Shown here piece by piece: positions 40,189 to 54,630 of a stretch of 64,000 nucleotides of DNA. The stretch comes from Escherichia phage SKA64. Within the stretch, counting starts at the first letter, position 1; each line of letters starts with the position of its first letter. Both the position numbers and the translations under genes were made by a program. The stretch lies in sequence record OM362897.1; one strand, given 5' to 3'. Under the pieces are notes generated by a model. The model had not been told where the DNA came from, searched no databases, and was given only the letters and a program-made list of their open reading frames with translations.

Positions 40189-40752
40189 ATGATTTATTAT
40201 ATTACTCCCTATCTGACAGGAAATATCGGCAAGGCTATCAATGAAGCCATTGCCGTTCTTCCAGATGATAGTTGGGTGTGTTTAAGAGATACCGATACAA
40301 TGTTCCTCCTACCTGATCAACCATCTATGCTTGAAGAGCTTGTTATGTCAAACCCGCCTTTTGATGTAATAGGTGCAACTTGTAACAGGTTAGGTAGTGG
40401 TTATCAGCTTTTCTCTAACCAAATTAACGATGATCCCGATATTCTAAACCATATAGAATATGCTAAGATTGCAAGAGAATATCATAAAGTGAGTGTTGAA
40501 GAAGTTCCTTTCGGAACACCTCTGGCAGGTTTCTTTTTGCTTTTTAGAAAATCATTGTGGAATGAAATTCCTTTCGAAGAAAAATCTATCCAATTCGACT
40601 TAATTTTCTCTCGCACTTTACATGAAAAAGGAAAGAGGTTAGGATTGATGCGGGGAATGTATCTGTTTCACATTTACAGATTAGGTCAAACAAATCCTCA
40701 ACGGTCTATACATCATTTATTACACTGTCATGATCACAGTAAAACTATTTAG
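40189..40752 (+). CDS. putative glycosyltransferase-like protein
   Basis: ORF track; GGAGGGGAGA RBS; LRDTDTMF possible DxD-like motif; weak. Confidence 0.35.
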   Translation: MIYYITPYLTGNIGKAINEAIAVLPDDSWVCLRDTDTMFLLPDQPSMLEELVMSNPPFDVIGATCNRLGSGYQLFSNQINDDPDILNHIEYAKIAREYHKVSVEEVPFGTPLAGFFLLFRKSLWNEIPFEEKSIQFDLIFSRTLHEKGKRLGLMRGMYLFHIYRLGQTNPQRSIHHLLHCHDHSKTI

Positions 40753-40760
40753 GAGAGAAA

Positions 40761-41444
40761 ATGGAAAATATTAAAATCGGAGTGGGTGTTATCACTGTAG
40801 GTGTCCGTCCACTTAAAGACTACCTTGTAACAGATCCACGTGCAGATTTTCGAGTATTCAACGATCCAGATCGTAAAGGTGTAGCTTATGCCAGGAATGA
40901 ACTTATGCACCAGTTTTATGAAGAAGGTTATGATTATTGGTTTATTTTTGACGATGATTGCTACCCAGTCATGGAGGGATGGGAAACATACTTTGTAGAT
41001 CAAGCTGTCTCTGGAGGATGGGATTTCTTTGGTATGCCGGAGTATTTCAAAGATAAAGTTGTTGGAAGCAAAGGAGAAGTTATTCTCTGGGAACTTGCAA
41101 TGTGTCAATTTGCAATGTATTCTCGTGCCGTTGTTGAGAAGATGGGTTATTTCCGTCCTTACACTCACGGTTATGGTTTTGAAGATGCTGAATGGGGACA
41201 CCGTTTGCAAGCTGCTGGTTTGAATCATGGTATTCAGGCAACACCTTGTCCACTTCGTATCATGGCTTATATCCACCCAGACGATGTTTTTGGAAACAAT
41301 CCTATGCCTTTTGCTAACCTGACAAAAGAAGAGAAAGAGGCTGCTATTGGGATTAACTGGGAAGAATATAAAGCATCTTTAGAGGATATTAAAAATGGGA
41401 AAATCCGAATTTCCTATGAGGAGGCACTAGCACATGTCAAATAA
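40761..41444 (+). CDS. family-2-like glycosyltransferase (GT-A fold)
   Basis: GVAYARNELMHQF, DxD-type FIFDDDCYP, GYGFEDAEWGHRL. Confidence 0.55.
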   Translation: MENIKIGVGVITVGVRPLKDYLVTDPRADFRVFNDPDRKGVAYARNELMHQFYEEGYDYWFIFDDDCYPVMEGWETYFVDQAVSGGWDFFGMPEYFKDKVVGSKGEVILWELAMCQFAMYSRAVVEKMGYFRPYTHGYGFEDAEWGHRLQAAGLNHGIQATPCPLRIMAYIHPDDVFGNNPMPFANLTKEEKEAAIGINWEEYKASLEDIKNGKIRISYEEALAHVK

Positions 41445-42381
41445 AAAATGGTCTAAACTAAAAATTGATGCAAAACCTCACAGCGGTTGTGACTATCATC
41501 GTATTGTTATACCATTTAACAACAATAATATTCAACCTAAGAAAGATGTTGTTGTGTTTAACCGTATCCACTCTAAAGGTGCAGAATACGTTTTATCTTT
41601 GAAACGTCAAGGTGTTAAGGTTGTTGTAGACTTAGATGATTTTTACCAACTTAATCCAGAACATTATTTAGCAAGTCTATACGAGTCAAACACTCATGCT
41701 ATTGTAGCTATGGTTAAGCTTGCTGATGTGGTTATTGTGACTACGGAATATTTGGCATATAAGATCCGTCACTTAAATAGGAATGTTGTTGTGATCCGAA
41801 ATGCACTTCCTTTTGATAGCGGACAATTCACTTTGTCAAATGATCGTTCATCCGGTACCCCTGTTGTATGGGCTGGCGGTGCTAGTCACGAACCAGACTT
41901 ACGACTAGTCTCTAATACTTTCGATGATGAACTTCTTACTATTGCGGGATATGAAGCATCACAAAGCATCACGGGACAAGAGTGGATTAAGATTCGCAGA
42001 AATTTACCAAATGCCAAATATAAAGCCGCTGTAAAAGATTTAGATAATTACATGAGTGTTTACGAAAGTCATGCTATTGCTATAGCTCCTTTGGTAGATA
42101 ATGATTTTAATAATTGTAAAAGTAATCTCAAAATCCTGGAAGCTGGAGCAAAAGGTATTCCAATTGTTTGTTCTAAGGTATTACCTTATTTTAACCCTGT
42201 AGATGCTCGCGCTGTTGCTTACGCAGAGAATAAAGCAGAATGGCATTACGAAATTGTTAAGCTTCTTCGCAATCCAAACTATCGGGAAGATCGTGGCTTG
42301 TTCTTGGCTGAACATGTTCGAACACATTATAATCTGGCAGATGCAAACGAGTTGCGACGCCAGGTTATTGAAAGTTTGTAG
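41434..42381 (+). CDS. putative glycosyltransferase, paralog 1
   Basis: ORF track; shares CD(Y/F)HR(I/V)V(I/L)P, LDD, VWAG, APL(V/I)DN.FNN.KSNLKILEAGAKG with next gene. Confidence 0.4.
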   Translation: MSNKKWSKLKIDAKPHSGCDYHRIVIPFNNNNIQPKKDVVVFNRIHSKGAEYVLSLKRQGVKVVVDLDDFYQLNPEHYLASLYESNTHAIVAMVKLADVVIVTTEYLAYKIRHLNRNVVVIRNALPFDSGQFTLSNDRSSGTPVVWAGGASHEPDLRLVSNTFDDELLTIAGYEASQSITGQEWIKIRRNLPNAKYKAAVKDLDNYMSVYESHAIAIAPLVDNDFNNCKSNLKILEAGAKGIPIVCSKVLPYFNPVDARAVAYAENKAEWHYEIVKLLRNPNYREDRGLFLAEHVRTHYNLADANELRRQVIESL

Positions 42382-42388
42382 GTGAAGT

Positions 42389-43333
42389 ATGGGACAAATA
42401 ATTCTTGACAATCGTAACGGAATCAATTATAGTGTCTGCGATTTCCATAGGGTAGTGCTGCCTTACTCAAGGCAGTTCTCTTCACAACCTAAACACAACG
42501 TTTTCGTTTTTAACGGAGTGCCAACAAAAGGTAAAGAGGGCTTTTTAGCCCTTAAAAACCTAGGCTTTAAAATGGTTATGGATTTGGATGACTCTTTAGT
42601 TATTCCAAAAGGACACATGTTAGAAGGTATTTTTGAATCAGGTATTCGTGAACATTTAAAATGGTTTTTAGAGCACAGCGATCTTGTTACAACTACGACA
42701 CCTGCTTTGCAAGTTGAACTTTCACAATACAATGATAATGTGCACATAATCCCTAATGGTCTTCCTTACGATGAAGGTCAATTTGTGTTGACCCGTGATC
42801 GCTACTCCAAAACTCCATTAGTCTGGGCGGGAAGTGAAACACATAAACAAGATTTGGCTATCTTGCCCGATTTTGGTAAAGATCTTACGATATGTGGTTT
42901 TCGTAGGGATTCTGAAGTTTTAAGTAGTCGTGAATGGTCTGTGATCAGAGAAAATGTAGCACCAACTTGTGTTTATGAAGGTGTAAGACCATATGCCAAC
43001 TACATGGAATCTTACGATGGTCATCAAATCAGTCTTGCGCCATTGATTGATAACGTGTTTAATAATGCAAAAAGCAATCTTAAAATTCTTGAGGCAGGTG
43101 CTAAGGGTTTACCTTTGATCTGTTCTCCTCGTGAGAATTATCATACACAAGAGTTTAAAGATTTGTTATTCTTTGCTGAAACGCCTTCCGAGTGGAAAGA
43201 TATTACGGAATACTTATTAAGTGCTCCCGATGTTTGCATGGAGAAAGGATTAGCATTAGCTAAGTATGTCAGGACTCATTATCACATTGATGTGTTGAAT
43301 GAGCGTCGTAGACTTTTATTTGAGGAGCTATAA
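42389..43333 (+). CDS. putative glycosyltransferase, paralog 2
   Basis: ORF track; tandem paralog of 41434..42381. Confidence 0.4.
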   Translation: MGQIILDNRNGINYSVCDFHRVVLPYSRQFSSQPKHNVFVFNGVPTKGKEGFLALKNLGFKMVMDLDDSLVIPKGHMLEGIFESGIREHLKWFLEHSDLVTTTTPALQVELSQYNDNVHIIPNGLPYDEGQFVLTRDRYSKTPLVWAGSETHKQDLAILPDFGKDLTICGFRRDSEVLSSREWSVIRENVAPTCVYEGVRPYANYMESYDGHQISLAPLIDNVFNNAKSNLKILEAGAKGLPLICSPRENYHTQEFKDLLFFAETPSEWKDITEYLLSAPDVCMEKGLALAKYVRTHYHIDVLNERRRLLFEEL

Positions 43334-43623: not shown

Positions 43624-45402
43624 GTGTCGCACATTATAACTAAATATGGATTTGATGTTGATCTTAGCAAGGAAGGGCATACAGGTTGTCCGCGCTGCAT
43701 GAAAAATGGCAAGGATCGCTCTCGTAATAACCTGATGGTTTATGGATTAGATTCTAATGGAGAGCATAAAGGTGCTAAGTGCTTTGCGTGTGAATACACT
43801 ATTCCTAGCGTAGAATGGTTACGAGAAAATGGTGAAGTTTTAGAAGAAGAGGAGGAGATTGTGGGTTCGGAATTTAATAAACAGATTCATCGTAAAATTG
43901 TTCAAGAAACATCAACCAACCCACGTGGTTATCGAGGCATTAAAGAAAAAGTTTCATCTTTCTATGGTGTTCGTTATGAATACCGTCAGGAAGGGGATCA
44001 GATGGTAGTAGAAAGTTGTTTATATCCAACTACTATCGGTAAAGAGTTGGTTGGTTTTAAGCGTCGTATTCATCCTAAAGATTTCAGTAAACCTATTGGT
44101 CAAGTAGGTAAAGATGTAGATCTTTTTGGACAAATTCGTTTTGCAGACCGTTCTCATACTGTGGTAATTACAGGTGGTGAACACGATGCTCTGGCAGCTT
44201 ATCAAATGCTGTCTGAAAACTTGGACAACAAATATGAACTTCCAGCAGTAGTTAGTGGCACAACTGGTGAAACCAGTATGTATAAACAAGTTCAGGCACA
44301 ATATCCTTTCTTTGAAAAATTTAAGAAGATTATTGTTTGCATGGATAATGACAAAGCAGGTAATGAGGCATTTGAAAATATTGTTAAGGTGCTGCCTCGT
44401 AACAAAGTCTACCGTATGCAGATGGATCTTAAGGATGCCAATCAGTATCTGGAAGAAGGTCGTGCAAAAGATTTCGTAAAAGCTTTTTGGAGTGCTCGTC
44501 TATACACCCCAGCAGGTGTTTATGCTTCTAATGTCTTGTATGAAGCTGCATTAGAATGCTTGGAATCCAAGATGATTACCTTGCCTCCTTTTATGCGTGT
44601 TGCTGCAAATATGCTGGGTGGTGGTTTAGTAGAGGAAGAGATTACAGTCATCCTGGCAAAGACCAGTATCGGTAAAACTTTGATGGTGAATGAGATCACC
44701 AAACATATTATTGTTGCACACCCAGAACATACCCTAGGTATTCTGTCCTTGGAAGCAACTTATAAGAAATATTCTCGTAACCTGTTGTCCTCGTTCCTGC
44801 ATATTCCTCTACACAGGAAAACACCGGAAGAGAAATTTCAAATCTTGGAAGAGAATAAAGAAAAAATCTTAGATTTTTACGAAAGAGAAGATGGATCGCC
44901 ACGTTTTTATGTGTGTGATGATCGTGGAGCAGATGTGGAGTCTATCAAAGAAAAAGTTTTGGAGATGATCATCTATTTTGGAGTAACAATTCTTGTTATC
45001 GACCCTTATTCTGATTTGCTTTCTGGTATGGATGTTCAAGCCCAGGAAGAGTTAGCAACATGGTTGAAGCGCATCATGAAAGAGTATGCTATAACTATTA
45101 TCGTCATCTCACACGTTAAGAAATCGGCTAATGGTGGCAATGAACACTTAACAGAGGACGATGCAATGGGTAGTAGTTTCTTGGCTAAAGGTGCTGGTAT
45201 TACCTTGGCTTTGGAACGAGATAAAGCCGCTGAAGATCCTGTAGAACGTAATACGACTCATTGCTTTATCCTAAAAAACCGTGAGTTCTCGGAAACTGGT
45301 CCGGCAGGGCAGTTTTACTATGACATTAGAACTGCAACTCTGCATGACAAAGAGCAGTATTTCAACAATCCTGCTAATTTGCCTACGGATAGCAACTATT
45401 AA
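43624..45402 (+). CDS. T7 gp4-type bifunctional DNA primase-helicase
   Basis: GTG start; N-terminal Cys4 Zn-ribbon (CPRC...CFAC), TOPRIM acidic motifs (ITGGEHD, CMDNDKAG), helicase P-loop AKTSIGKT. Confidence 0.85.
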   Translation: MSHIITKYGFDVDLSKEGHTGCPRCMKNGKDRSRNNLMVYGLDSNGEHKGAKCFACEYTIPSVEWLRENGEVLEEEEEIVGSEFNKQIHRKIVQETSTNPRGYRGIKEKVSSFYGVRYEYRQEGDQMVVESCLYPTTIGKELVGFKRRIHPKDFSKPIGQVGKDVDLFGQIRFADRSHTVVITGGEHDALAAYQMLSENLDNKYELPAVVSGTTGETSMYKQVQAQYPFFEKFKKIIVCMDNDKAGNEAFENIVKVLPRNKVYRMQMDLKDANQYLEEGRAKDFVKAFWSARLYTPAGVYASNVLYEAALECLESKMITLPPFMRVAANMLGGGLVEEEITVILAKTSIGKTLMVNEITKHIIVAHPEHTLGILSLEATYKKYSRNLLSSFLHIPLHRKTPEEKFQILEENKEKILDFYEREDGSPRFYVCDDRGADVESIKEKVLEMIIYFGVTILVIDPYSDLLSGMDVQAQEELATWLKRIMKEYAITIIVISHVKKSANGGNEHLTEDDAMGSSFLAKGAGITLALERDKAAEDPVERNTTHCFILKNREFSETGPAGQFYYDIRTATLHDKEQYFNNPANLPTDSNY

Positions 45403-50556: not shown

Positions 50557-50586
50557 TTGACAATATTAAACATTTTATGATAGGAT
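50557..50586 (+). promoter_or_regulatory. sigma70-like promoter candidate (near-leaderless)
   Basis: TTGACA-N18-TAGGAT ending 8 nt before ATG at 50595. Confidence 0.35.
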
Positions 50587-50594
50587 AGCATTCA

Positions 50595-50987
50595 ATGACT
50601 GAACGTTCTAAGATAGCTGTTGAAACTGTTTATGGAAACTATACCAGTTTGACACTAGTTGAGAAAAATGTTGTAGGTCTTGACAACTCTTTTTATTTTC
50701 AAATTTTGGTTATTCAAGGTGGAAACAAGAAGCTAACTGCTCGTGTCGAAACATCTGAAATAATTGAAACCACTGTTACAAACAAAGAATTCATTTCACT
50801 GCAAGATACAATCCGAAACGTTATAGACGAAGAAGGCAAAGCTGCCACAATTAAACTCGGAGGTTTCCCAGTGCAAATAGTTCATTTTCCTAATGGTGAA
50901 ATTGGAGTTGGAATAGGTAAAGGTAAATACCTGTTAGAGCAAGATGATATGGAAAGACTCCGCTCTTTCTGTGCAAAATTAATGTAA
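50595..50987 (+). CDS. hypothetical protein (130 aa)
   Basis: ORF track; weak RBS. Confidence 0.5.
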   Translation: MTERSKIAVETVYGNYTSLTLVEKNVVGLDNSFYFQILVIQGGNKKLTARVETSEIIETTVTNKEFISLQDTIRNVIDEEGKAATIKLGGFPVQIVHFPNGEIGVGIGKGKYLLEQDDMERLRSFCAKLM

Positions 50988-51003
50988 TGTAGAGGAGATA
51001 ATA

Positions 51004-51891
51004 ATGTCCGTAATTAATACTGAAACTGATCGTAAAGGCAAAACCGTAACTTATGCAACTGGTATCGTAGACTACGTTAAACTGGATAAATTCGCTGAAC
51101 CTAAAACCTTCCATTGGGAAGGAAAAACGATTGTTTCAACTCACCGAGCTTCTCTTGTTCTGAAAGAGAAAGGTGCTAAACCAGATGAGAAAGGTGTTTG
51201 GATTTCTCTTGGTGACATTGAACTGAAAGAAGGTTATGAAAACCTGCAAGTCAAAGAAGGTGATAATTGGATCACTATTGAAAAAGGTGTAGAAGTAAGT
51301 ATTGATATTGATCGCGTTGATAATAAAGGCGGTAAAACTTACTACAATACTAAAAAATCTCGTATTACAGTATTGTCTACCGATGGTGTTCAGAAGTCTA
51401 ACAAATCTTCTGGCAATAAAGGTTCCAACGATGCTGCTCCTAAGCAGTCCTATAAAAAACGTGATACCGTAGGTCTGGAAACTGGTCACGCAGTAAATGG
51501 TGCACTGGAACTGATTCGTAATGGTGTTAAAGGCGATGCTTTCGATATCGCTGGGGTTGTTCAATCTGCAACTGTCACGCTGAAATCTGAAATTGCTGAA
51601 TCTCGTGGCGTTGATATTAATGATTATGATCTTGGGGCATCTGTTGGTCACGCTATTCTCAATGCTTGTAAAGACCATACCATTAAGACTGTCTCTGTAG
51701 AAGATCTGATTGATTCTGCTCGTAAAGTTCTGGCTCTGTCTGATAAAGTTGCTGCTGCCATTCGTGGTTCCGCAGAACAACCTAAGAAAGAAGAGAAGAA
51801 AGAAGTTAAGAAACCTGAACCACAACCAGAACCAACTCCAAGCAATCAAGAAGAACCTCCAATGGACTTCGACGATGATATTCCGTTCTGA
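51004..51891 (+). CDS. single-stranded DNA-binding protein candidate
   Basis: C-terminus MDFDDDIPF identical to the acidic tip of bacterial SSB; Pro/Glu-rich linker before it. Confidence 0.55.
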   Translation: MSVINTETDRKGKTVTYATGIVDYVKLDKFAEPKTFHWEGKTIVSTHRASLVLKEKGAKPDEKGVWISLGDIELKEGYENLQVKEGDNWITIEKGVEVSIDIDRVDNKGGKTYYNTKKSRITVLSTDGVQKSNKSSGNKGSNDAAPKQSYKKRDTVGLETGHAVNGALELIRNGVKGDAFDIAGVVQSATVTLKSEIAESRGVDINDYDLGASVGHAILNACKDHTIKTVSVEDLIDSARKVLALSDKVAAAIRGSAEQPKKEEKKEVKKPEPQPEPTPSNQEEPPMDFDDDIPF

Positions 51892-51924
51892 TCTTATTGA
51901 TTTATAAAGAGTTTTTATAAAAGA

Positions 51925-51956
51925 AAAGGGAACCTTTGCTGGTTCCCTTTTTTATT
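51925..51956. terminator. bidirectional rho-independent terminator
   Basis: AAAAGGGAACC-TTTGCT-GGTTCCCTTTTTTATT between convergent genes. Confidence 0.7.
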
Positions 51957-54630
51957 AGTCGTAATATTTCAAACCTGTAATGAACTTCGATCCCCAATCC
52001 GCACTTGCGGCGGTGAACGTCAACATCCAAGTTGTAGCTGTACCAGTGAAGACCTCTCGTTGCACAGTACCATCAGTGTGGTAAATGTCCACGCCAGTAT
52101 GTCCATTCTTAGGAATAGTGAAGGTAACAGCACTGGTAGTGTCTCGTGCATAAGAACAAACAAATGGTGTCCCCGCCCAAACTGGATTTGTCATATCGCC
52201 CATCTCAAGCTGTGGAACCCAAGCAATAAGACCTGCCGTACCATCTCCTGCGAAAGTGTCTGATCCACTTGCATTCAAAGCTATAATCTCATAGGTTATA
52301 GATGCTTGTTTGGCAACTGTCACTTTGTGTAGAATTACACGATACCAACCATTCCCCATATCGATTATGTTTGCATCTGCACCTGTAAATGTTCCAGCTA
52401 CAAGATCATAAGTCCCTTCGTTAATCTCATCTCCTGAAGTCAATTTGAGTTTCACTTTAGTGATCCCATCTGGCTTCAAGAATACGGATGCCGCCCAGTG
52501 CTTACCTGCTGTAATATCAGAAGCTGTATTCACTGCTGATAAAATATGTTGTCCTGAAGTTGTAGAAGGTGTTAACTTGTAAGTGTTAGCTGTAGTTCCA
52601 ACCGGAGAGTTGATTGTTGATGCTGTGACTGTCAAGTTCGTCTTCAACCACGGGGAAGCTGTTGTCAAGTTATTGTTGATAAAGATATGTGTACGGTTGG
52701 CTGCTACAACACGTCTACCTTGTGGAGTTGTACCAACATATTCTAAAGGTGCTACGGGAGCAGAACTCTCTGTAGGTACAAGGATATCTCCAGAAGCCCT
52801 GGCATAACGGTTACTCCTGTTGACCTTTACATCCGCCGGAATAGTTTCTTGCGTCAAATCATAGTCCATCACAATCACCACAGCATTCACTGTGAGATAA
52901 GAACTATCTTCGGCAGTTACCACACCTTGATAAGTTGCTCTACAACCGATACGACAACCTCCATCAGCAACCGCTGTAATAACGCCTGTAACGGGGTCAA
53001 CTGTTGCTACCGTAGGGTCATTAGAGAAATACTCAACAACCATACCAGGTAAGCTTGCTGCTCCTGTTGGCGTTATTTCTGCTACCATTGTTTGTGTTGT
53101 TCCTACATCCATCGCAGATAAGCTAGGAGTGTAAACGCTCAATGTTGAAGCATATCCTCCAGAGGTATCTGATAAAGTTGTTCCTTCGGCGTTTAAGGCT
53201 GTCATACCTGCATCAAAACCACCTTCTGCATGGAAAGTCATTAAACCAGTAGATGATATTGTCATGTTTGCAGGGGCAGAAGAAGTGTATTTAATATTGA
53301 AAAGTTTACCTCCTTCTGGGCTAACAGAATGTGTCAACTGTTTAGTTCCACCTACAATACAAATTCCTAAAGAATCTGTAGTTAAGCCAGTTGCCAGAAT
53401 ATCACCCGTAATCACGGAGCTTGCTATTGGTGTGAATTTATTATAGTTTAGACCGCTATTGAACAGATACGAGGCTTTCCCATCTTTCCAAATACCGGAA
53501 TAATACATATCTCCATTATAAACGAAAAAGGTTCCTTGATAACCTAATTGGTTAGTAACATCCATATTCAGCGTATGAACGCTTGTGAGCTTGTTTATAT
53601 CCCAAGAACCCACTCCTTCAGGTTTAACTGGTTTTCCCACTTGGAGTGGATCTCCGCTCGCAGAATCATACCCCAAACCTAAGTTTGCAGTGTAGTTCTT
53701 ACCAATAGCCCACAAGGAATTATTGATCCCAACGAAAAAAGAGTGGCGGCTTGGTGGAAACTTCCATGTTGAGAAACCTGCTGCAAAGGTATCCAGTTTA
53801 GTGTAGGTTGTTTCTGTATTAGACCTAACATATAAGTAGTTTACTGTACCCGTGCCACCGGAGGTATCTCCTACAACTATTGTCTGGGAAACTGTATTGA
53901 TGTAATCTTTGACATACACTGTTTCAGTAGCGGATATCTTAGCATTGACAAAAGCTGTTGTTGTGTTATTATTACCTGCTAAACCTTTACTAGCTCCACA
54001 AACACGCAAGGTTCCCACATTGTTGACATAAGAGCATTGGTTGTAACCTGCATCAAAAGCAACTGCTGCACTTGTTATCTGACGAGGAGTAGAAACTTCG
54101 TTAGTAGTACTTGCACCTAAACTACCTACTGTGTTTTGACCAGATCCGTAAAGAACACCACTATTCATTAACCAGAGAGTGTTGTTATATCCTCCCTTAA
54201 CCTCTTTAAGATTGGCTAAAGAGATAGTCCCTGTTATTACAGATGGAAAGCTGGTCCAAGTAGTTACACATGCGTCCGTACCACCTGCTGCTATAGATCC
54301 TACCAATCCTGCTGTCAATCCTGAATATTGCCATCCCCCACTGTTAGTTTTAATAACAAAACAACGATCTGCGGTAAACACATCCGCTACTACAGTAGAA
54401 GCTAAGTGGAAATTATTGAATCGTGCACTACGAGTTCCATCTGCAATTTCACCAAAAAGGTTTGCGCCTTGAGTAAACAATCTACCATCATTAAGCAAAA
54501 TTGCTAAACTGCTATTAGAATTACCAGCATTATCTGGGTAATCTAAAGTGATTACTTTTTTAACAATACCCGCTGGCAGAGGAACGACACCAGTGCTGGT
54601 CATAATAGTAAATATTGGAATTGGAAACAT
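51955..54630 (-). CDS. tail fibre / receptor-binding protein (891 aa)
   Basis: ORF track; TATGGAGGG RBS; Gly/Thr/Ser-rich, follows fibre genes. Confidence 0.5.
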   Translation of the reverse strand: MFPIPIFTIMTSTGVVPLPAGIVKKVITLDYPDNAGNSNSSLAILLNDGRLFTQGANLFGEIADGTRSARFNNFHLASTVVADVFTADRCFVIKTNSGGWQYSGLTAGLVGSIAAGGTDACVTTWTSFPSVITGTISLANLKEVKGGYNNTLWLMNSGVLYGSGQNTVGSLGASTTNEVSTPRQITSAAVAFDAGYNQCSYVNNVGTLRVCGASKGLAGNNNTTTAFVNAKISATETVYVKDYINTVSQTIVVGDTSGGTGTVNYLYVRSNTETTYTKLDTFAAGFSTWKFPPSRHSFFVGINNSLWAIGKNYTANLGLGYDSASGDPLQVGKPVKPEGVGSWDINKLTSVHTLNMDVTNQLGYQGTFFVYNGDMYYSGIWKDGKASYLFNSGLNYNKFTPIASSVITGDILATGLTTDSLGICIVGGTKQLTHSVSPEGGKLFNIKYTSSAPANMTISSTGLMTFHAEGGFDAGMTALNAEGTTLSDTSGGYASTLSVYTPSLSAMDVGTTQTMVAEITPTGAASLPGMVVEYFSNDPTVATVDPVTGVITAVADGGCRIGCRATYQGVVTAEDSSYLTVNAVVIVMDYDLTQETIPADVKVNRSNRYARASGDILVPTESSAPVAPLEYVGTTPQGRRVVAANRTHIFINNNLTTASPWLKTNLTVTASTINSPVGTTANTYKLTPSTTSGQHILSAVNTASDITAGKHWAASVFLKPDGITKVKLKLTSGDEINEGTYDLVAGTFTGADANIIDMGNGWYRVILHKVTVAKQASITYEIIALNASGSDTFAGDGTAGLIAWVPQLEMGDMTNPVWAGTPFVCSYARDTTSAVTFTIPKNGHTGVDIYHTDGTVQREVFTGTATTWMLTFTAASADWGSKFITGLKYYD

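Follow-up and report, generated by a model that had tools for sequence, protein, structure and literature searches.

A phage protein of the PHROG 4477 family with the exact C-terminal tip of E. coli SSB on a divergent body with a predicted OB fold

Can a phage protein that ends exactly like E. coli SSB be an SSB itself when the rest of its sequence does not resemble one? The question is raised by a gene in a 64,000-nucleotide stretch of DNA from Escherichia phage SKA64 (OM362897.1), referred to here as the window. The gene product has the ending ...PSNQEEPPMDFDDDIPF. Its reading frame begins with ATG and ends with a TGA stop codon at 51889-51891, and the start is corroborated by the N-termini of homologs (MSVINTETDRKGK). 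At 99% identity, the region matches phAPEC8-like phages (Phapecoctavirus, Stephanstirmvirinae), and tblastn detected the gene, identical or 99-100% identical, in 57 phage records. Over its whole length, the 295-aa protein matched phrog_4477, a family of 'unknown function' (E 2.7e-97). In GenBank, the gene is mostly called hypothetical, and the same exact protein is named SSB in a few records. The probability that the frame arose by chance, or belongs to a gene in decay that ends like SSB by accident, is practically nil: the ORF is preceded by a strong ribosome-binding site, 337 phage records carry it intact and conserved over its full length at identities between 100% and ~30%, its structure prediction is confident, and the last two residues of its product are invariant. 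This conservation already refutes such an origin. The features of the locus are collected in Table 1.

Table 1. Positions of the SSB-like gene, its domains and its neighbors in the window, and of related elements in other phages
Feature	Position	Strand	Basis or remark
SSB-like CDS, 295 aa, PHROG 4477 family	51004..51891	+	Stop included; ORF list, translation, homologs
Shine-Dalgarno GAGGAG	50992..50997	+	6 nt before ATG; read from sequence
Residues 1-128, predicted OB-fold beta barrel, putative ssDNA-binding domain	51004..51387	+	
Residues 129-152, disordered basic S/N/K/G-rich linker, pI ~10	51388..51459	+	pLDDT <50 at 133-149
Residues 153-256, conserved four-helix domain, family signature	51460..51771	+	AlphaFold2, alignment
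Residues 257-283, disordered K/E/P-rich linker	51772..51852	+	pLDDT 44-64
Residues 284-295, EPPMDFDDDIPF, identical to E. coli SSB tip	51853..51888	+	PDB sequence search
Several glycosyltransferase-like genes	5' part of block, before primase/helicase	+	
Primase/helicase	43624-45402	+	
Dam-type methylase (methyltransferase)	Between primase/helicase and DNA polymerase	+	
DNA polymerase A, 865 aa	46730-49327	+	
Small ORFs, nucleotidyltransferase, 130-aa ORF	Downstream of DNA polymerase A, before SSB-like gene	+	
GC-rich hairpin with T-runs on both strands, terminator	51924..51951		Detected on minus strand
Tail-fibre gene	51955-54630	-	Convergent, sharing the hairpin terminator
Endonuclease gene in relatives	L001:4905-5399; L003:3968-4396; L005:4171-4713; L007:4236-4814 (Bas58)		
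C-terminal extension in relatives	L001:4883-4933; L003:3925-3975; L005:4114-4161; 43 IMG/VR loci L012-L054		

The C-terminus of the protein reads ...SNQEEPPMDFDDDIPF. The initial annotation had recognized the last nine residues as the protein-interaction tip of bacterial SSB. Searching every chain sequence in PDB bore this out and extended it, as the last 12 residues, EPPMDFDDDIPF, are the C-terminus of E. coli SSB (PDB 1eqq) and of the closely related SSB 7f2n. The expectation for an exact 12-residue C-terminal match is ~20^-12 per ORF, placing it far beyond chance. As in bacterial SSBs, the acidic tip D-F-D-D-D-I-P-F follows a disordered linker. P294 and F295 are invariant in an alignment of 54 family sequences, and D290/D292 are conserved at 96%. 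All 120 of the homologs listed carry an acidic ...[ILVC]PF motif, which forms the very C-terminus in 103 of them and is followed by a short extension in the other 17.

The same annotation had proposed host-partner mimicry, with the tip grafted onto a phage-specific domain for ssDNA binding. We considered a recent horizontal transfer of the tip from E. coli ssb and rejected it: the tip-coding bases share 84.6% nucleotide identity (33/39) with the chromosomal ssb gene, as is seen when the same peptide is encoded with synonymous changes, and the tip is found family-wide. It is ancestral to the PHROG 4477 family rather than recently grafted, because nearly all members, down to ~25-30% identity, end in acidic ...[ILV]PF. 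Distant members (P0134, P0244, P0149, P0154, P0139, P0143 and others) end in other tips, namely ...EEPPPF, ...SDDPPF, ...DDDLPW and ...GLDF. The variants ...EEPPPF, ...DDPPF and ...DDLPW, which we take to resemble the SSB tips of other bacterial phyla, hint that the tip tracks the SSB of the host. Tail-less family members of ~190 aa hint that it is dispensable in some lineages.

To sequence methods, the body of the protein is not an SSB. Hmmscan against Pfam gave no SSB match at E <= 1, the PHROG SSB families aligned to residues 247-295 only, and the family profile searched against all PDB sequences matched SSB in the tip only, as did a single-sequence PDB search. None of 131 family members matched PF00436 and no Pfam model was matched consistently; one distant member weakly matched PF01336, an OB-fold nucleic-acid-binding domain. 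In comparison with E. coli SSB (PF00436; PDB 1eqq, 1kaw), the protein has no detectable sequence similarity outside the tip, its linker is K/E/P-rich rather than G/Q/P-rich, and an extra conserved four-helix domain lies between the OB fold and the linker.

An AlphaFold2 model built with the family alignment had a mean pLDDT of 82. Residues 1-125 are all-beta (pLDDT ~90), and four helices span residues 156-172, 179-201, 208-223 and 232-255 (pLDDT ~93). The tail is disordered from residue 258 and includes the tip, with pLDDT values of 44-64 in the residue blocks 251-295 and below 50 at 258-271. Across the 54 aligned sequences, the K/E/P linker before the tip varies in both length and sequence. 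Foldseek of the model against PDB returned nothing at E <= 1e-3, and a structure search of BFVD returned uncharacterised phage proteins only. The solved structures nearest to the barrel are overwhelmingly nucleic-acid-binding OB folds, among which the ssDNA-binding ones are nearest, and the similarity to SSBs is moderate. The model thus points to an OB fold in the body that is too divergent for sequence methods. Its conserved basic and aromatic positions (K41, H47, W66, K84, W89, Y113 and Y114) would fit a nucleic-acid-binding surface. Bacterial-type SSBs (PF00436) are homotetramers that bind ssDNA of any sequence. Of their other hallmarks, the OB-fold domain was found as a prediction and the disordered linker with its acidic tip was present, whereas the match to the family profile was absent.

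These results qualify the statement that the N-terminal 250 residues do not look like a canonical SSB OB fold, which is right for sequence (no SSB match in Pfam; SSB matches confined to the C-terminal part in PHROG and PDB), although the AlphaFold2 model does contain an OB fold. Structure prediction, proposed at that time as a check, yielded the OB fold together with a conserved four-helix domain and the disordered tail with its tip. The earlier interpretation is supported in part and largely right: an exact tip does sit on a body without SSB sequence, but that body has a predicted OB fold and the tip is not a recent graft.

OB folds also serve as protein- and oligosaccharide-binding modules. 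If the barrel were a protein-binding module, it might bind the phage primase/helicase and polymerase together with the helical domain, while the tip bridges to host factors, and the protein would be a replisome adaptor without ssDNA binding. The similarity to SSB structures, which is only moderate, and the uninformative structural neighbors of the helical domain would be in keeping with an adaptor, but the nearest structural neighbors of the barrel are overwhelmingly nucleic-acid-binding, long forms of the family add a second small barrel as in multi-OB SSBs, and the phage would be left without an identifiable SSB. We consider this function very unlikely.

The unusual element of the protein is its four-helix domain. 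This is the most conserved region in the 54-sequence alignment, above the OB fold, with the signature RDxxGxETGHAxNGA ... T190, K194 ... YDLGASVGHAxLNA. Conserved residues in its first half are R153, D154, G157, G161, H162, A163, N165, G166, T190 and K194, and further on Y208, G211, V214, G215, A217, L219, N220 and A221. Its structural neighbors are unspecific, comprising designed helical repeats, RuvA domain III and sigma region 2. An internal duplication of the domain (GHAxNGA versus GHAxLNA) was considered and dropped; BLASTP of the two halves found nothing, and the likeness is a short motif resemblance only.

We found 137 homologs at 99% to ~30% identity in a large protein database, and they fall into two size classes, ~275-324 aa and ~364-425 aa. 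A second small beta barrel in the linker region is present only in the long forms (364-425 aa) and absent in all forms of 275-324 aa. In the model of a near-identical long form, P0077, this is an extra five-strand barrel of ~60 residues (~residues 179-240) positioned between the OB fold and the helical domain, which accounts for the size difference between long and short forms. A profile of the helical domain retrieved 157 clusters from 1.84 billion representative proteins. Nearly all of these are 180-420 aa long, beginning with the beta domain, continuing with the helical one and closing with an acidic ...PF-type end; in ~15 short relatives (~190 aa), the protein stops once the helical domain is complete, without a tail. 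By these searches, PHROG 4477 is a small, phage-restricted family without a Pfam model. The 295-aa protein resembles its members in the tip and in both the beta and the four-helix domain, carries the motifs RDxxGxETGH and GASVGHAxLNA, and can be classed as a short-form member of this PHROG 4477 or Bas52_0087-like family. The label 'SSB-like' is already in use for the family, both in a bioRxiv preprint of April 2026 (10.64898/2026.04.29.721553) and in the annotation of some GenBank entries; a short-form member with domain boundaries is added here.

Genetic evidence within the family exists for Bas52_0087 (QXV84166.1, Vequintavirus RudolfGeigy) only. BLASTP aligned this protein with the 295-aa protein over the OB domain (35% identity, E 8e-13) and over the helical domain and tail (33% identity, E 9e-16), and both genes lie downstream of the DNA polymerase. 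Bas52_0087 is longer (408 aa) and has the extra small barrel, which the 295-aa protein lacks, and its C-terminus reads QYSFDDDIPF instead of EPPMDFDDDIPF, the difference lying before the tip. On the basis of Phold and AlphaFold2, it was called 'SSB-like' and credited with two OB folds and the C-tip FDDDIPF (10.64898/2026.04.29.721553). In the same study, mutants of Bas52 (Vequintavirus) escaping the reverse-transcriptase defence DRT10 (UG17) both carried substitutions in Bas52_0087, D252V and Y351C. Bas52_0087 was required to trigger DRT10, a defence with a genetic link to the ssDNA exonuclease SbcB, and the authors propose that Bas52_0087 interferes with this host exonuclease; expressed alone, it was neither toxic to the host nor able to trigger DRT10 (10.64898/2026.04.29.721553). 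Stephanstirmvirinae are also restricted by DRT10 (10.64898/2026.04.29.721553).

Because D252 aligns to the near-invariant D154, and Y351 to ~A249/A250 at the end of helix 4, both DRT10-escape sites map, by alignment and model, to the helical domain and not to an OB fold. Since DRT10 also restricts Stephanstirmvirinae, it is plausible that the 295-aa protein triggers DRT10, and its homology to Bas52_0087 predicts that substitutions of D154 would let these phages escape this defence. A wider interpretation is possible, if rather doubtful: a distinct class of phage SSB, not yet modelled by Pfam, would be defined functionally by the four-helix domain and not by the OB fold. The helical domain would set its oligomeric or cooperative state or bind a specific partner, and would be sensed by DRT10-type defences, with the exact host tip as a swappable host-matching module.

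The SSB-like gene is the last of a plus-strand block that holds replication genes, and the plus-strand sequence of the hairpin behind it is AAAAGGGAACCtttgctGGTTCCCTTTTTTATT. A position downstream of the DNA polymerase is also seen in the distant relatives L003, L005 and Bas52. In the complete genome of ESCO37 (99% identical, 290 features), no further gene is annotated as SSB and no other ORF has an SSB-like ...IPF tip; the sole other match to the tip pattern is a 361-aa ORF ending in ...DDEELDF, at the annotated ribonucleotide reductase beta subunit. A tblastn search of ESCO37 and the 64-kb window with E. coli SSB (query sequence entered by hand) detected only the tip of the SSB-like gene. 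These searches support, but do not prove, that the 295-aa protein is the only SSB of the phage, as a second, equally divergent SSB would escape them. A literature search for an SSB of phAPEC8 or Phapecoctavirus found nothing relevant.

Taken together, we think it probable that gene 51004-51891 encodes the phage's own SSB, with predicted ssDNA binding and a host-type tip that would engage SSB partners of the host. This conclusion is drawn from the exact tip, the confidently predicted OB fold, the position in the replication block with its terminator and the searches that found no other SSB, and also from the homology to the DRT10 trigger Bas52_0087 and the existing SSB labels in GenBank. The divergent N-terminal OB fold would coat ssDNA at phage replication or recombination intermediates, a step suggested by the predicted fold, the conserved aromatic and basic residues, the gene position and the lack of another SSB. 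The four-helix domain may mediate self-association or another essential contact, since it is the most conserved region and both escape substitutions of the homolog fall there. The flexible K/E/P linker would present the C-terminal EPPMDFDDDIPF. SSB-Ct docks into pockets of SSB partner proteins. From this established behavior and the identity to the host tip, we infer that the phage tip would dock into the corresponding pockets of ExoI/SbcB, RecQ, RecJ, PriA, RecO, Pol III chi and others, and would bring these partners to phage ssDNA or draw them away from host SSB by competition. Several points weigh against an SSB function: the helical domain, not the OB fold, is best conserved; ~15 short relatives (~190 aa) have no tail at all; and among 120 close relatives, 17 have a ~15-residue extension under which the terminal carboxylate would be buried.

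The competition for partners might also be the main role of the protein. As a decoy that presents many copies of the host SSB tip, it would titrate SSB-interacting enzymes, above all ExoI/SbcB, RecJ and RecQ, from host SSB, with ssDNA coating secondary or absent; phage DNA ends would then be protected, or host DNA transactions shut down. A 12-residue identity to the host tip exceeds the needs of an acidic ...PF tail, and conservation is lower in the OB fold than in the helical domain, both of which favor titration. Against it, Bas52_0087 alone has no effect on host viability, making it less likely that essential SSB partners are strongly titrated, the gene is part of a replication block with no other SSB found in the ESCO37 genome, and the predicted OB fold keeps its conserved aromatic and basic residues. 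We regard a decoy function as unlikely; it would in any case be compatible with a true SSB and not exclusive of one.

phAPEC8-like and rV5-like phages are common coliphages that are used in therapy cocktails, and their replication proteins are mostly annotated 'hypothetical'. With the probable own-SSB assignment, gene 51004-51891 gains a reasoned function and precise domain boundaries, and candidate functional residues can be named: W66, K84 and Y114 for the OB fold and D154 for the four-helix domain, along with the C-terminal 8 residues. A Phapecoctavirus protein is also connected with Bas52_0087, the DRT10 trigger and the one protein of the family that has been studied genetically. T7 gp2.5 and T4 gp32 are phage-specific OB-fold proteins with an acidic tail and a terminal aromatic residue, and the 295-aa protein, with its predicted OB fold, would share this plan; the tail is established to mediate partner binding in gp2.5 and gp32, as summarised in the DARNA preprint. 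In T7 gp2.5, the tail has a terminal Phe and binds the polymerase and helicase of the phage. The SSB of phage HK620 is a bona fide tetrameric PF00436-type protein with a diverged tip, NDYPPF, whereas the 295-aa protein has a non-canonical body and the exact tip; the HK620 tip recruits a partner to SSB-coated ssDNA, and binding of Sak4 needs the last 6 residues (PMC5928155). The protein described here adds another phage case, an exact host SSB tip on an unrelated body, and bears on which host SSB partners phages need.

Canonical SSB-Ct binding needs a free terminal carboxylate (C-terminal Phe). In the 17 of 120 listed homologs with an extension past ...DDDIPF, the extension consists of AP[IV]GLQY and 7-10 mostly hydrophobic residues, ~15 in total (for example, APIGLQYPALLNCM), so that the peptide takes the form ...DFDDDIPFAPIGLQYGRNFLHCF versus the plain ...DFDDDIPF. 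An extension past the terminal Phe should block or mask canonical SSB-Ct binding, and the tip could be masked in some phages by this conserved sequence. Named phages with the extension include Vibrio phage Val-yong3. A degenerate DNA pattern for IPFAP[IVM]GLQY found 43 IMG/VR contigs with at least four unrelated ORF body types, canonical SSBs included. The APIGLQY codons differ synonymously among the loci examined, which suggests constraint on the peptide. A full-text literature search for the extension motif retrieved no paper.

The 3' end of the SSB-like gene is immediately followed or overlapped by an endonuclease gene in several phages, Phapecoctavirus and Vequintavirus among them; its product belongs to phrog_2340 and matches HNH and endonuclease VII more weakly. 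Such a gene follows or overlaps at the three examined loci with the extension. It is absent at 51891-51955 in the window, where the stop codon at 51889-51891 ends an 'empty' allele. This arrangement suggests that the phrog_2340 gene is a homing endonuclease targeting the conserved tip-coding sequence, with the 51004-51891 locus as a cleavable 'empty site'. We rejected a group I intron as the basis of the read-through past IPF, as there is no 3' exon and the endonuclease gene is followed by the terminator and the convergent tail gene. An obligatory tie between the extension and the endonuclease was also rejected; other genes lie downstream at most of the 43 IMG/VR loci.

Several observations concern the neighborhood and distribution of the gene. 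The 130-aa ORF at 50595-50987 (phrog_16560, annotated as unknown function) ends 16 nt before the SSB-like gene and is preceded by a promoter-like site at 50557-50586 (TTGACA, 18 nt, TAGGAT, with an upstream TG). As a family-wide partner this ORF was discarded: it has a homolog in L003 (33% identity, E 1e-15), and no homology to the neighbor in Bas52 was detected. MG065650, labeled 'Campylobacter phage' with the host Campylobacter jejuni, carries the SSB-like gene at 99.7% identity to coliphages, and MG065645, MG065644 and MG065658, with the same labels, carry it at rV5-like identity to coliphages; the organism or host labels of all four records look doubtful. Just upstream of the primase/helicase, 40189-43333 holds four consecutive glycosyltransferase-like genes, two of which are tandem phrog_7162 paralogs and one of which weakly matches the T4-type HMC glucosyltransferase; from sequence, they may form a DNA or surface sugar-modification module. 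The DNA polymerase of 865 aa compares with one of 1189 aa called in the near-identical contig L001 (L001:1-1740), and the polymerase CDS of Bas52 is annotated as a join of two pieces (L008:1-2803), suggesting that the polymerase gene of some relatives carries insertions (intein, intron or homing element).
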